A stretch of DNA of 64,000 bases from a virus (IMGVR_UViG_3300023184_000031:42256-106255), one strand, 5' to 3'; shown: positions 18,938-28,361, counted from the stretch's first letter. Translations and numbers: made by a program. The notes: generated by a model not told the origin, from the letters alone.

Positions 18938-21900
18938 ATGGCAATACCATCACTATTAGGATCCTATATTGATCAAACATACCAGCGAATTGTACAAACT
19001 ACAGGTAGTGGTACTGAATTTGCTGATGGTTTAGGTAATCCAATTACATTCGGCACAACTAATACAGGTAGCTTATTAACAACAGCATCTGTAGTGCTAA
19101 ATACAATCACCTTTAAAAAAGGGGATGGAACTACTTTCCCTATCACAGTAAATACAGGATCGGGAGGTGGAGTAGCTTTTCCATACACAGGTAGCGCCAC
19201 AATAACAGGTAGCTTAGTAATAACAGGTAGTACAGCATCATCATTAGGATTTACTGGTTCATTATTAGGAACAGCATCATATGTTTCTGGTTCTGTATTT
19301 ACTAGTACTAATCCTGCATTGAGTGCCTCGTTTGCATTAAGTGCATCACGAGCAGTAAGTGCATCATATGCTACTACAGCATCATACGCTTTAAATGCTA
19401 GAGCAGGGGGGGCTAACACTCAGTTACAATATAATAGCGGTAGTATATTAGCCGGTACAAACGGACTAACATGGGAAGCTGAACTGCCAGGTACATCTTC
19501 AAATTATCTTGTTAATACAGGATATTATATACTAGATTTTCCACTTAATGGTGGTGGTGGATTACTAGGTAGAGGTAGTAATTATAACCTATTCCAAATG
19601 GGCTTTAACGCTCAAGCTCAATATGGGGGAACATTAGGAACTATATCAGGTAACCAATTCTTTATATATAATTTTCAAAGAGACCCAACAGGTGGAGTAA
19701 CAAATTATTTGTGGGGATTCAATAACAATGGTGACAATTTCTGGGGTTGGGATTCTACATATTATACTGTAAAAATACAACAACCACTAGAGGGTGGTAC
19801 CCCCGACTATGGCAATATAGTACCATTAGAAATAAAACTAGATAATACTGATTATACTAACACATCAGGAGCTAATAGTCATCTTGTACTAAATAATCCA
19901 AATGATGGAGTTGCCCAAACCTCTATAACATCCATTATAAATGGAAATACTGTAGCAAAATGGAGAACGGATTATGCTGGTAATATTTATTGGACTGCTG
20001 GATCAAGCGGTAGTCATGCCTTTTACACTAATGGTGATTTTGGCGTAGGACAATCTAGAATGGATATTTTTAATAATGGAAATATATTAATTAAAAATAG
20101 TGCTGTAGGTGTAGTCAATATAGATAGTGGTTATAAGTTAGATGTATCAGGCTCAGGAGTATCAGGTTCAGTTCGTTTTCAGAATGGGTTAAAAGTAACA
20201 GGATCCATTTCAGAGGGATTAACTAGCTATACTATTGGTGATTATTCACATGCTGAAGGTTATAAAACAACAACCGGCCTATATGCATACCAATCAGTAA
20301 GTATAAGTGGAGGTAACATTGTTTTAAATGCTTCTTATGGTAATGTATTAGATCAATTTACATTACCTTTGTCTATAGTACTTGATGATAGTGCTGTAGA
20401 TAATATTTACGGAAGACAAATATTTTCAGTAAATGCTGTATCATGGAATGGAGCAGAGGTAAAAATTACCTTAGTTGATACATCAGTAACAACTACTCAA
20501 GCAAATATAGGTGTTATAGGAATAATAAATCCAACCAATGCTGATCAAACCATAGGTGGAACTTATGCACATACTGAAGGTATAGAAACAATAGCATTAG
20601 CTAATAATCAACACGTACAAGGACAATACAACATACCTACTTTAGGTGGATCTGCTTTTATTATAGGTAATGGTGTTGATAATGTTAATAGAAGTAATTT
20701 ATTATATGCTAGTGGTTCTGGAGTACAAATAACAGGTTCATTAAAAATAAAGGGCCCTGATTCTTCATTTCTACCTATAGTCGAATTTTCAAATGATACT
20801 GCAGGTACTAATTATCCAATTCAAATATTAATATCAGATGAATTTCTTTCTGTTGGTTATCCTGCACCTCAAGGTTCTATTGGAAGTAGTACTGGTACTT
20901 TACAATTAAAATATGGAGCAGGTGATACTGAATGGGGACTTATAGTATATGAAAATGCCTCAGGAATAATGTCATCTCCAACAGCATCATATGCCCTAAC
21001 AGCATCATATGCTATGAACTCCGGCGGTAGTCCGGTTGAAGTAAAAAACCAAGGTACAACTATTACAACCGGAGTAACCTCCATTAATTTTACAGGAACA
21101 GGTGTTACAGCAACAAATGCTGGAGATGCGGTAACTGTAACTATACCAGGTGGTACAGGAGCACCAGGCGGCTCAAACACACAAGTACAATTTAATGCAA
21201 ATGGTGCCTTTAGTGGCTCTAGCGCTTTAACATTTAATAGTGGATCCAATACATTAACATTAACGGGTAGTTTATCAATCAGTGGTAGTGGAATAACAGT
21301 AACTGGATCTTTAAAAATATCAGGTTCAATAACCGGTTCGTTGTTAGGAACAGCATCATATGCCACAACTGCCTCTTATGTATTATTTACTACAAGTGCA
21401 TCATATGCTTCTGGTAGTACGTCTGCTTCTTATGCAAGTTCATCTACAAGCGCATCGTACGCATCAGGCAGTACAAGTGCATCATATGCCTCTAGTAGCA
21501 CAAGCGCATCTTATGCTAGCAGTAGCACATCTGCTTCTTATGCCTCTGCTTCTACAAGTGCATCATATGCTAGCAGCAGTACATCTGCTAGTTATGCTAG
21601 CAGTAGTACTAGTGCTAGTTATTCATTAACAGCATCATATGCAATGAATGGAGGAGGAAGTGGAACACCAGGCGGCTCAAACACACAAGTACAATTTAAT
21701 GCTAATAATGCATTTAGCGGTTCGCCTAATTTTACATTTAATAGTGGATCCAATACATTAACATTAACAGGTTCACTTAATATAACTGGTTCTACAACAC
21801 AGATAGGTAATCAAACAATAACAGGATCTATAACATCAACATTAGGATTTACAGGCTCATTACAAGGTACAGCAAGCTACGCTAGTCAGTCTTTAAGTGC

Positions 21901-23044
21901 TTCATATGCATCAAATGGTGGTGTAACACAAATACTACAAGGCTCAAATATTACAGTAAGTGGAAATGGTACAGGCCAAGTAACAATATCATCAACAGGA
22001 GGCGGAAGTAGTTATAACACGGCAACTGGATCATATGGTTCATTTTATAGTACAGTTACACAAACTAATGTAGCTAGCACTGCTATGTCAATGTCACTTA
22101 ATGTGACAGATATTTCAAATGGGGTATCAATCTCAGGCTCAATAGATCCATATAACACATATATTAAAACAGCAAATGCTGGGGTGTATAACATACAGTT
22201 TTCTGCACAAATAGATAAAACAGACTCAGGAACAGATAATATATATGTTTGGGTTAGAAAAAATGGATCAGATCTTAGTGACACAGCTACATCCGTTACC
22301 TTAGTAGGTAATAGTGCACAATATGTAGCGGCTTGGAACTTTTTTGTAAACTCATCAGCAAATGATTATTACCAACTAATGTGGTATTCACCCGATGCTA
22401 ACGTACGATTACACGCAGAAGCTGGTTTCGGAGTTGTACCAGGTATTCCTTCATTAATCGTCACTGTAAATAGAGTAGATCAATTTTTATCAAATACAGG
22501 GTCATTTAGTGGATCATTTACAGGAGCATTTACTGGTTCATTACAAGGTACTGCTAGTTGGGCTACAAACTTTGTATCAGCTTCTAATTATGTTTTAAAT
22601 AGTGCTACAAGCTCATTTGTACAAAACAGTCAAACAAGTTCAATGACTGTTGCTACTGCGTCATACGTAACAGGGTCTGTATTTACTAGTACTAATCCTG
22701 CTTTAAGTGCATCTTATGCTGTAACAGCTTCATACGCTTTAGTATCAGCAGGAGGTAGTGGTGGAACATCTAGAATAGTATCCTCCTCGATAACAACTAA
22801 TATTACAGCAGCAGCTGCAGCAAGTACAGACTATGTTTATTTAGTATCAGGATCAGCCACTGTTACATTACCAACAGCAGTGGGCAATACTAACCTATAT
22901 ACAATAAAAAGAACAAGTACAAATATAGTAACTGTGGCAGCATCTGGATCACAAACAATAGACGGTAGCTCAACAATATCATTAAATGTACAGTACCAAG
23001 CAGTAGGTCTTATAAGCGATAACGCTAACTGGAATATAATATAA
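18938..23044 (+). CDS. Large tail-fibre / receptor-binding protein, 1368 aa
   Basis: SASYA repeats; YadA-head-like SHAEG/AHTEG/QHVQGQYN; C1q/BclA-like segment GVYNIQFSAQ...VWVRKNG; TVTLP...YTIKR C-terminal domain. Confidence 0.8.
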   Translation: MAIPSLLGSYIDQTYQRIVQTTGSGTEFADGLGNPITFGTTNTGSLLTTASVVLNTITFKKGDGTTFPITVNTGSGGGVAFPYTGSATITGSLVITGSTASSLGFTGSLLGTASYVSGSVFTSTNPALSASFALSASRAVSASYATTASYALNARAGGANTQLQYNSGSILAGTNGLTWEAELPGTSSNYLVNTGYYILDFPLNGGGGLLGRGSNYNLFQMGFNAQAQYGGTLGTISGNQFFIYNFQRDPTGGVTNYLWGFNNNGDNFWGWDSTYYTVKIQQPLEGGTPDYGNIVPLEIKLDNTDYTNTSGANSHLVLNNPNDGVAQTSITSIINGNTVAKWRTDYAGNIYWTAGSSGSHAFYTNGDFGVGQSRMDIFNNGNILIKNSAVGVVNIDSGYKLDVSGSGVSGSVRFQNGLKVTGSISEGLTSYTIGDYSHAEGYKTTTGLYAYQSVSISGGNIVLNASYGNVLDQFTLPLSIVLDDSAVDNIYGRQIFSVNAVSWNGAEVKITLVDTSVTTTQANIGVIGIINPTNADQTIGGTYAHTEGIETIALANNQHVQGQYNIPTLGGSAFIIGNGVDNVNRSNLLYASGSGVQITGSLKIKGPDSSFLPIVEFSNDTAGTNYPIQILISDEFLSVGYPAPQGSIGSSTGTLQLKYGAGDTEWGLIVYENASGIMSSPTASYALTASYAMNSGGSPVEVKNQGTTITTGVTSINFTGTGVTATNAGDAVTVTIPGGTGAPGGSNTQVQFNANGAFSGSSALTFNSGSNTLTLTGSLSISGSGITVTGSLKISGSITGSLLGTASYATTASYVLFTTSASYASGSTSASYASSSTSASYASGSTSASYASSSTSASYASSSTSASYASASTSASYASSSTSASYASSSTSASYSLTASYAMNGGGSGTPGGSNTQVQFNANNAFSGSPNFTFNSGSNTLTLTGSLNITGSTTQIGNQTITGSITSTLGFTGSLQGTASYASQSLSASYASNGGVTQILQGSNITVSGNGTGQVTISSTGGGSSYNTATGSYGSFYSTVTQTNVASTAMSMSLNVTDISNGVSISGSIDPYNTYIKTANAGVYNIQFSAQIDKTDSGTDNIYVWVRKNGSDLSDTATSVTLVGNSAQYVAAWNFFVNSSANDYYQLMWYSPDANVRLHAEAGFGVVPGIPSLIVTVNRVDQFLSNTGSFSGSFTGAFTGSLQGTASWATNFVSASNYVLNSATSSFVQNSQTSSMTVATASYVTGSVFTSTNPALSASYAVTASYALVSAGGSGGTSRIVSSSITTNITAAAAASTDYVYLVSGSATVTLPTAVGNTNLYTIKRTSTNIVTVAASGSQTIDGSSTISLNVQYQAVGLISDNANWNII
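21392..21625 (+). repeat. Nonapeptide tandem repeat TSASYAS(S/G/A)S, 8 copies plus a partial
   Basis: 27-nt period, near-perfect in protein, synonymously diverged in DNA. Confidence 0.85.
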
Positions 23045-23051
23045 TAAAACT

Positions 23052-23498
23052 ATGGCATACAATCCACAAAATGCAAACGGACAAACTACAATGGCTAACT
23101 CAGCCCCGGTAACTATTGCATCAAATCAATCAACATTAAACGTTACTACTCTAGCAACTGGATCTGGAGGATACAGTGTAACAGGTAGCACATTAACAAA
23201 TACAGTAGTAAACATTGGAACACCAAATACACCTGGAGTAGTAGCAGGATGGTATATATACAATTCAAATAATGTTGTAACATATGTGCAATTTTTTAAT
23301 ACAGGATCGGCAGCTGTAACATTAGGAACAACAGCTCCTGCCTATTCAATAGGTATTCCAGCTTTATCAGCAGCTAACTTAATGTCACCTACAGGTATAG
23401 CACACACTACTGCTATTAGTATAGCAGCAACAACAGCAAGATCAGGAAGTACCGCTCCTGGAACAGCTATTGATATGAATATCTTTTACAAACAATAA
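23052..23498 (+). CDS. Small beta-rich virion-like protein
   Basis: T/A/G-rich 148 aa in the fibre cluster. Confidence 0.6.
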   Translation: MAYNPQNANGQTTMANSAPVTIASNQSTLNVTTLATGSGGYSVTGSTLTNTVVNIGTPNTPGVVAGWYIYNSNNVVTYVQFFNTGSAAVTLGTTAPAYSIGIPALSAANLMSPTGIAHTTAISIAATTARSGSTAPGTAIDMNIFYKQ

Positions 23499-23501
23499 TC
23501 A

Positions 23502-24734
23502 ATGAATATATTAACACCATCAGGATATAAAAATATAATGAGCTGTAGCATCGGAGACGAAGTTATAGCTTACGATATGAATGATGGGCATATTATATAT
23601 AATACAATTGAAGCGATAGAAGAATGGAATAGCAATAATGATAGTGAATTTAGTTCATCTTTCTACCTCGTTAATGACACCTATACCATGTATAAATGGC
23701 AAAGTGTATGGGCAAATGGAAATGTAACTCATGTTAATCAACTAAAAGTAGGTGATATAATATACGATGATGAAAATCAAGATATTATTATCACAAGTAT
23801 TACACCTACACCCCCTCAAACAGTATGGTATAGGTTAGAAATATCAGGAGACCACTCTTACATAGCCGATGGAATAACACTCCATAATGCATCAAGATTT
23901 TGGGTAGGAGGAACAGGTACTTGGGATGCTTCAAGCACAACTAACTGGTCTGCTACAACAGGCGGAGGTAGTGGTGCGTCTGTGCCTGGAGCTGCTGATA
24001 CAGTGACATTTGATGGCTCTTCAGGTACAGGAACAGTTACATTAAATACAGATGTTACTATAGTAAATATTACTATAGCTAATACAACAAATGTTATGAC
24101 ATTTAACTTTGCTACAAATAATAATAGTTTTACTCTTACAGGAAACTTTACTTACACAGGTGGTACACCCGCAAATAGAATAATAAATTATGGAAGCAAT
24201 ACAATAACGATAGGTGGAGCTGGTACTAATTTTAGTGCAGCAGCTATTGGTGGGGGTAATGATTTAAGTAACTGCACTCTTATTTTTACAAATACGACAA
24301 CAAGCACTGTTACAGTTAATCTCGTAACAGGATCTATAGGTACAGTTACTTTTAATAGAGGGGCAAGTACAGGTATAAACCAGTTTGCTCAAGGACCTGG
24401 TACGATAACAAATCTTAATGATATAGGAACAGCAGCTCACACTTTAAGATTTCAACAAGGTAGAACTTGGACTATTGGGAATTTTAATGTTAGAGGTTCA
24501 GCAGGAAATCTTGTAACAGTAGATACAAATGGTACTGCTGCTGCTACTTTAACAAAACTACCACTTGGTGTAGTGAATACAGATTATATAACAAGCGGAT
24601 CAATAACTGGACCAGTGAATGTAACGCCTGCAACACTAACTTGGTATGCAGGAGCAAATAGTAACCCATCAGGTTCAGGATGGATTACATCAAGCATGCC
24701 TCCAAGAAAAATGGGATCAGCAGGAGTAGGATAA
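23502..24734 (+). CDS. N-terminal Hint (intein-like) domain fused to a beta-solenoid-like structural passenger
   Basis: ILTPSGYKNI...IGDEV start; YRLEISGDHSYIADGITLHN end (Asn129); passenger begins ASRFWVGGTGTWD. Confidence 0.8.
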   Translation: MNILTPSGYKNIMSCSIGDEVIAYDMNDGHIIYNTIEAIEEWNSNNDSEFSSSFYLVNDTYTMYKWQSVWANGNVTHVNQLKVGDIIYDDENQDIIITSITPTPPQTVWYRLEISGDHSYIADGITLHNASRFWVGGTGTWDASSTTNWSATTGGGSGASVPGAADTVTFDGSSGTGTVTLNTDVTIVNITIANTTNVMTFNFATNNNSFTLTGNFTYTGGTPANRIINYGSNTITIGGAGTNFSAAAIGGGNDLSNCTLIFTNTTTSTVTVNLVTGSIGTVTFNRGASTGINQFAQGPGTITNLNDIGTAAHTLRFQQGRTWTIGNFNVRGSAGNLVTVDTNGTAAATLTKLPLGVVNTDYITSGSITGPVNVTPATLTWYAGANSNPSGSGWITSSMPPRKMGSAGVG

Positions 24735-24795: not shown

Positions 24796-25062
24796 ATGTT
24801 ATTTACAATTATCGTTATCGTAGTAGTAGCAGCTCTAGTAGTTTATGTTACTAAAAAAACCAAATCAACTTCTCCAACAGCATTACATGCAGAAGATGCT
24901 ATTGTTACTCCTTCAATTCATGAAGAAATTACTAAAACAGTAAAAGAAGCTAAAGCACAAGCTCCTATTGCTAATGAAGTTTCTAAAACTTCTAAAGTTA
25001 AATCTGCTCCTAAAATGAGCACCAAATCAGCTAAAAAATCAGCAACTAAAAATAAACAATAA
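24796..25062 (+). CDS. Membrane-anchored protein with Lys/Ser/Ala-rich tail
   Basis: N-terminal TM IIVIVVVAALVVYV; basic C-terminus; ATATTTAT at 24765-24772. Confidence 0.65.
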   Translation: MLFTIIVIVVVAALVVYVTKKTKSTSPTALHAEDAIVTPSIHEEITKTVKEAKAQAPIANEVSKTSKVKSAPKMSTKSAKKSATKNKQ

Positions 25063-25295
25063 TGCTTAAATTAGTAGAAATTGCTAAGGCTTGGATAGCC
25101 GCAGCTAACCCTACTCCTGAGCAGCAACAAATAGCAAATATTAGAATATCTATTTGTGATAGTTGTCCTAATAAAAAACCGCTACCACAGTTTAATATAT
25201 ATTCTTGTGGATTATGTGGTTGCCCCTTAGATAAAAAAATATTTTCACCCTTACCTGGCGAACAGGCATGCCCTGATAAGCGCTGGACAAAATAA
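25062..25295 (+). CDS. Small Cys-rich putative metal-binding protein
   Basis: CDSC...CGLCGC...C pattern. Confidence 0.65.
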   Translation: MLKLVEIAKAWIAAANPTPEQQQIANIRISICDSCPNKKPLPQFNIYSCGLCGCPLDKKIFSPLPGEQACPDKRWTK

Positions 25296-25301
25296 AAATT
25301 T

Positions 25302-25574
25302 ATGTCAGAAACAAAAAAACTAACAGCAGAAGAATTACAACAAATTAGCGAACTTCAAACACAATACAATAAGTTTGTATTTGAATTAGGTAGTGTTGAA
25401 GCACAACTCCAGTCTTTATTACATCAAAAATCACTATTAGAAACCGAAAAAAATGGTATTCTTAGTGATATTAAAACATTAAGTGTAAATGAAAAAGAAA
25501 TAGTATCATCACTACAAGAAAAATACGGTACTGGAAACATCAACCCACAAACCGGTGAAATAACTCCGTTCTAA
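25302..25574 (+). CDS. Small coiled-coil protein
   Basis: Heptad-rich; ends KYGTGNINPQTGEI. Confidence 0.65.
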   Translation: MSETKKLTAEELQQISELQTQYNKFVFELGSVEAQLQSLLHQKSLLETEKNGILSDIKTLSVNEKEIVSSLQEKYGTGNINPQTGEITPF

Positions 25575-25662: not shown

Positions 25663-27822
25663 ATGTCAGAAGTTATTCTTTCCCCTGGTGTATTCCAGAT
25701 CGAATCAGACCAAAGCTTATATACGCAGGCTCCACCAGCTCTTGGTGCTGCTATTGTAGGCCCTACAGTAGGTGGTCGCCCAATGGTACCTACTTACGTT
25801 ACTACTTATAGTCAATACTTATCAATTTTTGGTGATGTATTCAAAAGTAGTAGCTACTATTATGAATATCTTACATCAATGGCTGCTAGAGAATATTTTC
25901 AAAATGGCGGTCAATCATTATTAGTAACTAGAATCATTAGTGGTAGCAACAATATTAGTACATACGCTCAAGCAACTGTACCTAATACAGCAGCAACAGT
26001 TGCAGGAACTTCCGCTTCTGCTTCATTTGCAGCCGCTGCAGGAGATACAGGATCATGGATCCAAACAGTAATTAATGCTAGCACAGCTTATGGTACTGTA
26101 ACTTATAATATTATTAATAATCCATGGCTTATACCTCCTAATAATTATTCTGGTGGTGCTAATACTATATATCTTGGTATTGGAAATGGTGCTGGTGTTC
26201 CTAATGTATCATTAACAGAATGGGCAGGTTATATGGCAACTGCTATTAATAGTGCTACTAGCCTAGGTTCAACTGGTATAGGTAGTGCTCTTACAGCGTC
26301 CGCTATTGGTGGTACTTTAACTATTACCTCTAAATTAACTGGAACTGCCGCAAACGCATTTAGCGTTACTCATAGCTACAATTATGGTGTTTCAAATCCT
26401 CCAGCACAACAATTTGTAGGAGGTGTTGATTCTATTACCGGTACTTCATTTACTCTTGAAACATTAGATTGGGGTGATACTCAAAATAATACTTCAAGTT
26501 TATCAAGTGGTTCATTAGCAAGCGGATCAGCGTATAATGTACGTTGGGAAGTAACTAACGCAAATACTGGCTCAAACGGTGGTACATTTACAATTGTAGT
26601 TCGTAGAGGTGATGATAATAATACTCAAAAGAATATCTTAGAAACATGGGCTAACGTAAGTTTAGACCCACAACTTCCTAACTATATATCTCGTGTTATT
26701 GGTGATCTAAAACCAGTATACAATGTATCAACAGGACAAATTGACTATCAAGGTACATATGCTAATCAATCACAATATGTTCGTGTAGCATCAGTTGCTA
26801 TTCCAAACGTAGATTCATTAGATAATCTTGGTAATTTTAAATCAGGATCATATGGTACTACATTACCTGCAGTAGGTAGTGGTTCATACGGTGGTTCATT
26901 TAGTGGCGGTGCTACTGATACAACTCAACCAAAATTAATGAATGAAGCTATTACAACAACTAACATTCAAGGATTTGCACCTTCTGATTATAACACAGCA
27001 TTCACATTATTAACAAATAAAGATGAATACAGCTACAATATCTTATTAGCACCAGGTATTGGATTAGATTGTTCAGCTGCATCTAATATGATTGCAACTG
27101 TTGAAAGTAGAGGAGATGCAATTGCTATTACAGGAGCTGGTGTTTATGGAACAACAATAAATCAAGCAACTACAAACGCTGCTGGTCAATCAAGTAATTA
27201 CGCTGCAACCTATTATCCTTGGGTTCAATTATACTCAAGTGGTTTAGGTAAAACTGTATGGTGTCCTCCATCAACTGTAATAGGTGGTGTATTAGCATTC
27301 AACGACCAAGTAGGCGCTGAATGGTTCGCACCAGCTGGTTTGAACAGAGGTGGTATTCCATCAGTAGTAAGAGCAGAACGCAGATTATCTCAAACAGATC
27401 GTGATACACTATACACTCAAAATGTTAATCCATTAGCAACATTCCCAGGAACTGGGGTTGTAGTATGGGGTCAAAAAACACTACAACGTAAACCAACATC
27501 TCTTGATCGTGTAAATGTTCGTAGATTGTTGATTGCATTAAAAGATTACATTGGTGGTGTTTCTCGTAATTTAGTATTCGAACAAAATACAACAGTAACT
27601 CGTAATAGATTCTTATCACAAGTTAATCCATACTTATCATCAGTAGTACAACGTCAAGGATTATATGCTTATAAAGTAATAATGGACGATTCAAACAATA
27701 CTCCTGATGTAGTAGATCGTAACCAATTAGTAGGTCAGATTTATATCCAACCAACTAAAACAGCAGAATTTATTATCTTGAACTTCAATATTCTTCCTAC
27801 TGGCGCTACATTCCCTGCATAA
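25663..27822 (+). CDS. gp18: Tail sheath protein (gp18-like)
   Basis: SPGVFQIESDQS start; WFAPAGLNRGGI, VVWGQKTL, LDRVNVRRLL, FEQN and NNTPDVVDRNQLVG motifs. Confidence 0.96.
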   Translation: MSEVILSPGVFQIESDQSLYTQAPPALGAAIVGPTVGGRPMVPTYVTTYSQYLSIFGDVFKSSSYYYEYLTSMAAREYFQNGGQSLLVTRIISGSNNISTYAQATVPNTAATVAGTSASASFAAAAGDTGSWIQTVINASTAYGTVTYNIINNPWLIPPNNYSGGANTIYLGIGNGAGVPNVSLTEWAGYMATAINSATSLGSTGIGSALTASAIGGTLTITSKLTGTAANAFSVTHSYNYGVSNPPAQQFVGGVDSITGTSFTLETLDWGDTQNNTSSLSSGSLASGSAYNVRWEVTNANTGSNGGTFTIVVRRGDDNNTQKNILETWANVSLDPQLPNYISRVIGDLKPVYNVSTGQIDYQGTYANQSQYVRVASVAIPNVDSLDNLGNFKSGSYGTTLPAVGSGSYGGSFSGGATDTTQPKLMNEAITTTNIQGFAPSDYNTAFTLLTNKDEYSYNILLAPGIGLDCSAASNMIATVESRGDAIAITGAGVYGTTINQATTNAAGQSSNYAATYYPWVQLYSSGLGKTVWCPPSTVIGGVLAFNDQVGAEWFAPAGLNRGGIPSVVRAERRLSQTDRDTLYTQNVNPLATFPGTGVVVWGQKTLQRKPTSLDRVNVRRLLIALKDYIGGVSRNLVFEQNTTVTRNRFLSQVNPYLSSVVQRQGLYAYKVIMDDSNNTPDVVDRNQLVGQIYIQPTKTAEFIILNFNILPTGATFPA

Positions 27823-27872
27823 GGGGATGTAGTTCCTAATATTTATTAATAGCAATAAAATAACAATATAAA

Positions 27873-28361
27873 ATGGCAGTACTTAATCCGAACGAAATAA
27901 TGTTCACAGCGTATGAACCGAAGGTTGCAAATCGCTTTATAATGTACATAGACGGTATTCCGGCATATTTAATTAAAAAGATATCAGCTCCTGGATTTGA
28001 CGCTGGTGAAATCATATTAGAACATATTAACGTTTACCGTAAAGTAAAAGGTAAAGTTAGATGGAATGATATGACAATGGAATTATACGATCCGATCACT
28101 CCAAGTGGTGCTCAAGCTGTAATGGAATGGGCTCGTTTGGCACATGAATCAGTAACAGGTAGAGATGGTTATAGTGATTTCTATAAAAGAGATATCACAT
28201 TGAATATCCTAGGACCAGTTGGTGATATCGTTGGTGAATGGATTGTTAAAGGTGCTTATGTTAAAACAGCAACTTTTGGCGATTACGATTGGGCTACAGG
28301 AGATGCAGCAATTACACTTAGTGTAACAATGGCTATGGATTATTGTGTATTGAACTTCTAA
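27873..28361 (+). CDS. gp19: Tail tube protein (gp19-like)
   Basis: Follows sheath; EPKVANRF, WNDMTMELYD and W...GA(Y)V...FGDYDW motifs. Confidence 0.9.
   Translation: MAVLNPNEIMFTAYEPKVANRFIMYIDGIPAYLIKKISAPGFDAGEIILEHINVYRKVKGKVRWNDMTMELYDPITPSGAQAVMEWARLAHESVTGRDGYSDFYKRDITLNILGPVGDIVGEWIVKGAYVKTATFGDYDWATGDAAITLSVTMAMDYCVLNF

Follow-up and report, generated by a model that had tools for sequence, protein, structure and literature searches.

Gene content of the tail-module locus

The window, a 64,000-nucleotide stretch of one strand, comes from the record of a complete virus of 170,255 bp with terminal repeats. Its positions 23502..24734 (+) encode a 410-residue protein in which a Hint domain precedes a putative beta-helical passenger. 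The stop-to-stop frame of this ORF is 411 codons long and cannot be extended upstream, as it is closed two codons before. A 148-residue protein is encoded in the same frame at 23052..23498 (+). It ends in ...NIFYKQ, followed by a TAA at 23496-23498, a single TCA codon and the ATG of the Hint ORF. The first-pass annotation had described just such an in-frame upstream gene, ending in TAA and without a terminal Cys, and the sequence bears this out. The 148-residue protein gene is a syntenic neighbour of the passenger in Hint-bearing and Hint-less phages alike, with homologues of 64-68% identity directly upstream in the loci L084 and L085.

At 18938..23044 (+) lies a gene for a Ser/Ala/Thr-rich long fibre of 1368 residues, which has partial homologues upstream in syntenic loci. 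The fibre contains long Ser/Ala/Thr hexapeptide arrays (TSASYASS repeats), it has no match in Pfam or PHROG, and its conservation in related loci is limited to its ends. A T4-like structural module surrounds the ORF and includes genes for a major head protein and a head-tail adaptor. The tail sheath and tail tube genes span 25663..28361 (+) and match PHROG families phrog_23 (sheath, E 1e-70) and phrog_4542 (tube, E 7e-19). The gene order is the 1368-residue fibre, the 148-residue protein, the Hint ORF, three small genes, sheath, tube and a baseplate hub-like gene. By these profile matches, the sheath and tube genes place the Hint ORF in the tail module of a predicted myovirus. The Hint-bearing homologue of a GC-rich, unrelated phage (L004) closes the tail module, ahead of the endolysin.

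Two of the small downstream genes, within 25062-25574, have counterparts of 75% and 69% identity in the same place in a Hint-less sister (L088). One encodes 77 residues with CxxC...CGLCGC motifs, and the other 90 residues with weak, sub-threshold Pfam matches to helical and oligomerisation domains.

An AlphaFold model of the 410-residue protein is confident overall (pLDDT 90.4, pTM 0.85). The passenger, residues 130-410 plus stop (23889..24734, +), is predicted to be a 28.3-kDa right-handed parallel beta-helix of tailspike-like form. VIA-align matches it to CBA120 TSP2 with a Z of 13.1 (225 residues aligned over model residues 130-397), a value that for repeat folds shows the architecture of the passenger only. 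Further matches are to phi29 gp12 and pertactin-type helices. On the model, residues 130-398 adopt the right-handed beta-helix fold of phage tailspikes.

Fold and catalytic residues of the Hint domain

Residues 1-129, encoded at 23502..23888 (+), constitute a predicted 14.7-kDa self-removing cap. Modeling with AlphaFold, a check suggested at first reading, yields a confident Hint fold for these residues. VIA-align places them at Z 13-15.5 against more than 20 intein, BIL and Hedgehog structures, the best being the gp41-1 intein (Z 15.5, rmsd 1.9 over 115 residues). The top Foldseek matches are Tetrahymena BIL2, gp41-1, CthBIL and DnaB/RecA inteins, with E values of 1e-6 to 1e-3. Among PDB entries, a profile built from 80 family members (A1) likewise picks out the intein gp41-1 (E 2e-5) and the BIL domain of C. 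thermocellum (E 5.6e-5). The identity of the domain as a Hint is far beyond chance, and its modeled structure belongs to the horseshoe-shaped, all-beta Hint superfamily. Against Pfam PT-HINT (PF07591) the domain scores 21.4 bits (E 3.3e-4), below the 27.7-bit gathering cut-off; a relative with an internal Hint, P0192, reaches 28.1 bits. Searches with the Hint protein returned no matching model in NCBIfam, no match among GenBank phage records and, in the ESM Atlas, unnamed viral clusters alone, with scores below 0.8.

In the structural alignment, the modeled domain (residues 1-129) covers intein positions 6 to about 125. Residue 1 of the model falls on chain residue 6 in 10 of the intein and BIL alignments listed by VIA-align, and the HMM alignment agrees in setting Met1 opposite Thr6 of gp41-1. 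The first five residues of an intein, including Cys1, are therefore absent, such that the proposal of a domain without a position-1 nucleophile or first strand is upheld by both alignments. The sole Cys within the Hint domain is Cys15.

We mapped the catalytic blocks by HMM alignment to gp41-1, and assessed conservation over 209 aligned Hint domains that had been preselected for a His-Asn ending. The His position of the block-B TxxH motif is occupied by Ser68 (codon 23703..23705, +), where 'KWQS' stands opposite 'SEEH' of gp41-1, in agreement with the earlier remark that this motif is absent. Ser is found here in 96% of the family, and the pair Gln67-Ser68 in 95-96%. The block-F Asp position (F:4), which holds Cys in class 3 inteins, is Arg111 (codon 23832..23834, +; aligned to gp41-1 Asp107), and is Arg in 81% and Lys in 11% of members. 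The block-F His assists Asn cyclisation in inteins. It corresponds to His118 (codon 23853..23855, +) in a GDHSY motif aligned to the 'SGNH' His of gp41-1, and is kept in 90%. The codons of His128-Asn129 occupy 23883..23888 (+), which puts the predicted scissile bond between 23888 and 23889. The next residue is Ala130 (codon 23889-23891), as the first-pass annotation had read it.

This residue inventory can be compared with each known class. Of the features of class 1 inteins, the C-terminal His-Asn and the block-F His are present (His118, His128 and Asn129), and Cys/Ser/Thr at position 1, the block-B TxxH (here Ser68) and a +1 Cys/Ser/Thr (here Ala130) are missing. Class 2 (KlbA-type) inteins use a +1 Cys to attack the N-terminal junction; the phage protein has neither a +1 nucleophile nor an N-extein. 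Arg111 takes the place of the block-F Cys (F:4) that belongs to the WCT triad of class 3. A split-intein C-fragment would pair with an N-fragment encoded at another site and be followed by a +1 nucleophile; here +1 is Ala, and the 170-kb genome contains a single Hint match. With A-type BIL domains, the phage domain shares a C-terminal His-Asn without a required +1 nucleophile and an occurrence in variable, non-conserved proteins, and it lacks their N-terminal Cys1, as do 179 of 211 relatives. By its sequence, then, the phage Hint fails the defining N-terminal features of the three intein classes and of A-type BILs.

The combination of Ala at +1, Arg at F:4 and Ser in block B argues that any known splicing route is excluded. 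More broadly, the protein has no N-extein, Cys1, first strand, block-B His, F:4 Asp or Cys, or +1 nucleophile, and therefore is predicted to carry out cleavage only. As judged from sequence and model together, splicing or thioester chemistry cannot occur in this domain.

The passenger junction and Hint-less relatives

The whole 410-residue protein has 496 matches in a database clustered at 90% identity. The Hint domain alone matches 444 clusters at 50% identity, 179 of them with E values below 1e-10. When relatives are counted without selecting for His-Asn, this dipeptide ends the domain in 222 of 223. The +1 residue among the 222 is Ala in 207, Pro in five, Lys in four, Ser in three and Cys or Thr in none. 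The Hint lies five or fewer residues from the start of the protein in 179 of 211 relatives, most of which begin directly with Met. About a dozen carry a signal-peptide-like leader before it, and in another dozen the Hint is internal yet still Cys-less. Among close relatives of the window protein, the Hints are 91-95% identical compared to 50-85% for the passengers. This pattern, together with the near-universal His-Asn, speaks against a decaying domain, which had been raised as an outcome that would undermine the cleavage proposal. The sequences instead point to a large, constrained family that is not decaying.

The passenger is predicted to begin, at 23889..23912 (+), with ASRFWVGG, of which the Ala is the +1 residue. 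Across the family this N-terminal motif reads A-x-R-F/Y-W-V-G-G, and Arg132 is invariant in the alignment of the 80 members of profile A1. Passenger homologues without a Hint, a search for which had been suggested from the outset, exist. These proteins of ∼280 residues are 71-77% identical to the window passenger (and up to 87% identical to the passenger of a sister), and start Met-Ala-[Ala/Ser/Asn]-Arg-Phe-Trp-Val-Gly-Gly, exactly at the +1 site. Met-Ala starts at +1 account for most of the best 80 IMG/VR loci and for most metagenome loci among the matches listed, the latter being relatives at 48% identity or less, and total at least about 130 loci among the matches listed. Sec-type signal peptides precede the motif in at least 12 metagenome loci, of which at least 11 end AxA|ASRFW and one TAR|ADRFW. 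Thus, the same N-terminus appears to be made in three ways: by a Met-Ala start, by an AxA| signal peptide and by the Hint as HN|ASRFW.

The boundary is equally sharp in the DNA. Starting at the +1 codon, 90 nucleotides of the window match syntenic Hint-less loci at 86-87% identity, and immediately upstream of the junction no similarity between them is visible in the compared sequences. The first reading of this gene, as a cleavage-only Hint that releases a passenger starting ASRFWVGG, is strongly supported by the Hint-less starts, the AxA| signal peptides and this DNA boundary. The alternative N-termini are the strongest evidence for the predicted cut at Asn129|Ala130. Because three unrelated devices yield the same end, the passenger family probably needs a free Ala N-terminus.

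Syntenic Hint-less loci also reveal what may occupy the position of the Hint. In the close relative L088 (the same as L009), neighbouring proteins are 88-92% identical to those of the window, and a Hint-less passenger sits in the same slot. Seven syntenic Hint-less loci carry a conserved gene for an 82-residue protein between the homologue of the 148-residue protein gene and the passenger (L084:4456-4704, L085:5323-5574 and L088:5748-5996; also L086, L106, L143 and L145). Its stop overlaps the passenger ATG as TAATG in L084, and the gene is predicted to be translationally coupled to that of the passenger. We sought it in the genome of the window, where it is absent, and the Hint occupies that position. 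With one Hint-bearing context set against seven Hint-less ones, the Hint and the 82-residue protein gene look like alternative cassettes.

The 82-residue protein was considered as a degenerate Hint and rejected: the BLASTP E value is 0.19, and its model consists of a small sheet and two helices, with fold matches to uncharacterised phage proteins only. Read-through into, or fusion with, the upstream gene was also discarded, since Hint-less loci share the same C-terminus and stop of that gene and in 179 relatives the Hint lies no more than five residues from the protein start.

Proposed role of the Hint as a cap, and alternatives

We consider it probable that the Hint serves as a self-cleaving cap, in which a cut at Asn129|Ala130 frees the beta-helix passenger and the Hint acts as a pro-domain. 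The 43-kDa precursor would be made with its first 129 residues forming a Hint reduced to a single reaction. Asn129, aided by the penultimate His128 and the block-F His118, would cyclise to a succinimide, thereby breaking the Asn129|Ala130 bond to give a 14.7-kDa Hint and a 28.3-kDa beta-helix with an Ala-Ser-Arg-Phe-Trp N-terminus. This mechanism is modeled on the chemistry of inteins and A-type BIL domains, the latter of which need no +1 nucleophile for Asn-dependent cleavage of their C-terminus (Dassa et al. 2004, as summarised in PMC7765530). On the basis of the conserved residues and the junction pattern, cleavage is likely.

A role for the Hint in chaperoning or timing would be a guess. 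The Hint might be an N-terminal pro-domain or cap that guards the first rung of the helix, which would need a free N-terminus, or helps it to fold. It might also stand in for the 82-residue protein of the Hint-less sister phages. The reading of the Hint as a true intramolecular chaperone or guard of the first rung, interchangeable with the 82-residue protein acting in trans, is therefore set out only tentatively, and we hold it to be rather doubtful. If it were true, the Hint would mirror, at the N-terminus, the S74 auto-chaperone that tailspikes carry at the C-terminus. Its relatives would then form a new natural family, of very large size, of asparagine lyases that perform a single reaction, and would be a ready source of traceless self-removing tags.

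Some observations count against a self-cleaving cap. Many inteins cyclise their Asn only slowly when the reaction is uncoupled from the N-terminal steps. Pro at +1 disfavours cleavage in engineered inteins, and five family members carry it. Moreover, Hint-less homologues at up to 87% passenger identity evidently work, and therefore the Hint is not essential for folding.

A selfish or neutral relic is the strongest competing explanation. The Hint would be an intein-like passenger that came to lie at the very N-terminus, where it can be excised without any ligation, and would bring no benefit. The chemistry would be the same as in the cap, and the domain would stay intact only because the fibre fails until self-removal has taken place. 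Its distribution is indeed patchy. A quick tree of 312 tips, built from the initial 120 residues of the passenger, shows 40-47 changes of state (47 for Hint, start and signal), compared to a mean of 105 (minimum 91) with shuffled labels, and the nearest neighbour is Hint-less for 25 of the 179 Hint-bearing passengers. These counts point to repeated gain, loss or recombination of the module. Hints that are 93-95% identical on passengers just 50-55% identical, the clean indel boundary at the +1 codon and the functioning of Hint-less homologues without the domain would fit the same explanation. However, there is no homing endonuclease or other mobility device, and the module occurs with a single passenger family, A-x-R-F/Y-W, instead of in conserved essential genes. 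The slot is otherwise filled in syntenic phages by the conserved 82-residue protein gene with its presumed translational coupling. The Hint also recurs behind signal peptides, on very large proteins secreted by bacteria of the Candidate Phyla Radiation (CPR), and inside multi-domain proteins, which suggests use rather than parasitism. On balance, we regard a relic without benefit as unlikely.

Still less probable is a structural domain that does not cleave, i.e. a permanent N-terminal adaptor (docking, for example, to the baseplate or to the neighbouring 148-residue protein) whose His-Asn is structural. Tailspike N-terminal domains commonly anchor them to the virion, and all N-terminal catalytic residues of the Hint are gone. 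AlphaFold sets both domains together confidently across the junction (pTM 0.85), which would fit a stable two-domain protein as well as a precursor. Nonetheless, His-Asn in 222 of 223 relatives and a block-F His in 90% are hard to explain structurally, and Hint-less and signal-peptide homologues begin exactly at +1. Furthermore, the same Hint stands in front of passengers whose lengths run from 280 to over 1,700 residues, on secreted proteins of bacteria as well as in phages, and so is not a phage-specific adaptor.

The remaining alternative, that the Hint is the C-terminal piece of an atypically split intein whose Cys-starting fragment, encoded elsewhere, would trans-splice or ligate the passenger, draws on the VidaL and AceL structures among the fold matches, on the roughly five missing residues and on the existence in phage metagenomes of atypical split inteins with very short N-fragments, but is close to refuted by Ala at +1 (Cys or Thr in 0 of 222 relatives), the replaced block-B His and F:4 Asp/Cys, the single Hint match in the genome, an upstream gene that ends NIFYKQ in Hint-bearing and Hint-less loci and so supplies no intein N-fragment, and signal-peptide forms whose Hint N-terminus would be free outside the cell. 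The suggestion that the missing strand is supplied in trans finds no support, given the one Hint copy in the genome, the unchanged upstream C-terminus in Hint-less loci and the Ala, Arg and Ser at +1, F:4 and the block-B His position.

Relation to known Hint systems and spread of the family

Known Hint roles are splicing in inteins, cholesterol transfer in Hedgehog proteins and cutting at one or both ends in BIL and pre-toxin HINT domains. The best structural match to the phage Hint is gp41-1, a cyanophage-like class 1 mini-intein (PDB 6qaz/6riz), with which it shares the block-F His and the block-G His-Asn. Unlike class 1 mini-inteins, the phage Hint is predicted not to splice, does not interrupt a conserved protein of its host and lacks a homing endonuclease.

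A-type BIL and pre-toxin HINT domains (PF07591; C. thermocellum BIL, PDB 2lwy) share the Hint fold (2lwy, Z 15.3), a C-terminal His-Asn, the lack of a +1 nucleophile and an association with hypervariable surface and fibre proteins. In these domains, Asn-based C-terminal cleavage frees the downstream module (PMC7765530, PMC3482391). They start with Cys1, follow a large N-extein and directly precede a toxin or other module at the C-terminus, whereas the phage Hint has no Cys1 or first strand, has Ser in block B and is the first element of its protein. The phage domain also resembles an engineered C1A intein tag placed at the N-terminus, although here the N-terminal chemistry was lost naturally and throughout the family, and not through an engineered point mutation. 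Engineered C1A tags for C-terminal cleavage, used in protein purification, leave a native N-terminus. By analogy, the Hint protein probably works like an A-type BIL, a pre-toxin HINT or a C1A tag.

Peptidase S74 domains, the C-terminal auto-cleaving chaperones, offer a functional analogy, being self-removing domains on phage beta-helix or fibre proteins. They act at the opposite terminus, have an unrelated fold and use a Ser-Lys dyad where the Hint would use Asn cyclisation; no sequence or fold match between Peptidase S74 and the Hint protein was seen. In the literature searched, no paper describes a Cys-less Hint at the N-terminus of a fibre or beta-helix protein. A preprint on the detachable tailspike of RcGTA proved unrelated and makes no mention of a Hint or intein. 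The family is uncatalogued, and its members appear to cap the N-terminus of beta-helix fibre and surface proteins and then to remove themselves.

A clade of this kind would have been reduced by evolution to Asn cyclisation alone and moved to the extreme N-terminus. It spans several kinds of phage as well as giant secreted proteins of CPR and other bacteria, and might serve as a natural experiment on which intein residues are needed for C-terminal cleavage once N-terminal coupling is gone. For phage biology, it would represent a second way, at the opposite end, to mature beta-helix fibres. A natural domain of 129 residues that is predicted to remove itself and leave a native N-terminus could also be useful in protein engineering.

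The exact junction pattern recurs in genomes of Paceibacterota, Staskawiczbacteria, Saccharibacteria, Omnitrophota, Negativicutes, Sterolibacterium and Bradyrhizobium. In four MAG contigs of Paceibacterota/Staskawiczbacteria (L167, L168, L170 and L171), the Hint comes no more than 4-5 residues after a signal peptide, and the passengers behind it exceed 1,600 residues in L170 and L171. One Staskawiczbacteria contig carries two signal-peptide and Hint copies. Six large proteins (P0192, P0215, P0225, P0230, P0235 and P0239) hold a Cys-less Hint and an ASRYWVGG junction 120-590 residues from their start. Among the internal-Hint proteins, one has FG-GAP repeats and one a peptidoglycan-binding domain. 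A cut in such proteins would split a polyprotein and not remove a cap.

Apart from one extended relative, P0112, a canonical Cys-Phe-x-x-Gly start is seen only in outgroup PT-HINT matches, the weakest of the set. P0112 and a second extended relative, P0089, have a leader of 13-14 residues and an intact first strand, which starts CFALG (Cys) in the former and YFALP (Tyr) in the latter. These two may bridge A-type BIL domains and the truncated clade. Another six Hints (P0016, P0020, P0026, P0029, P0065 and P0087) contain an insertion of ∼55-60 residues after about residue 40, and some of these proteins come from Bradyrhizobium and Mesorhizobium genomes. The insertion weakly resembles a duplicated '...DL.VGD.IY.D......ITSIE' half of the domain, with local alignment scores of 44-51.
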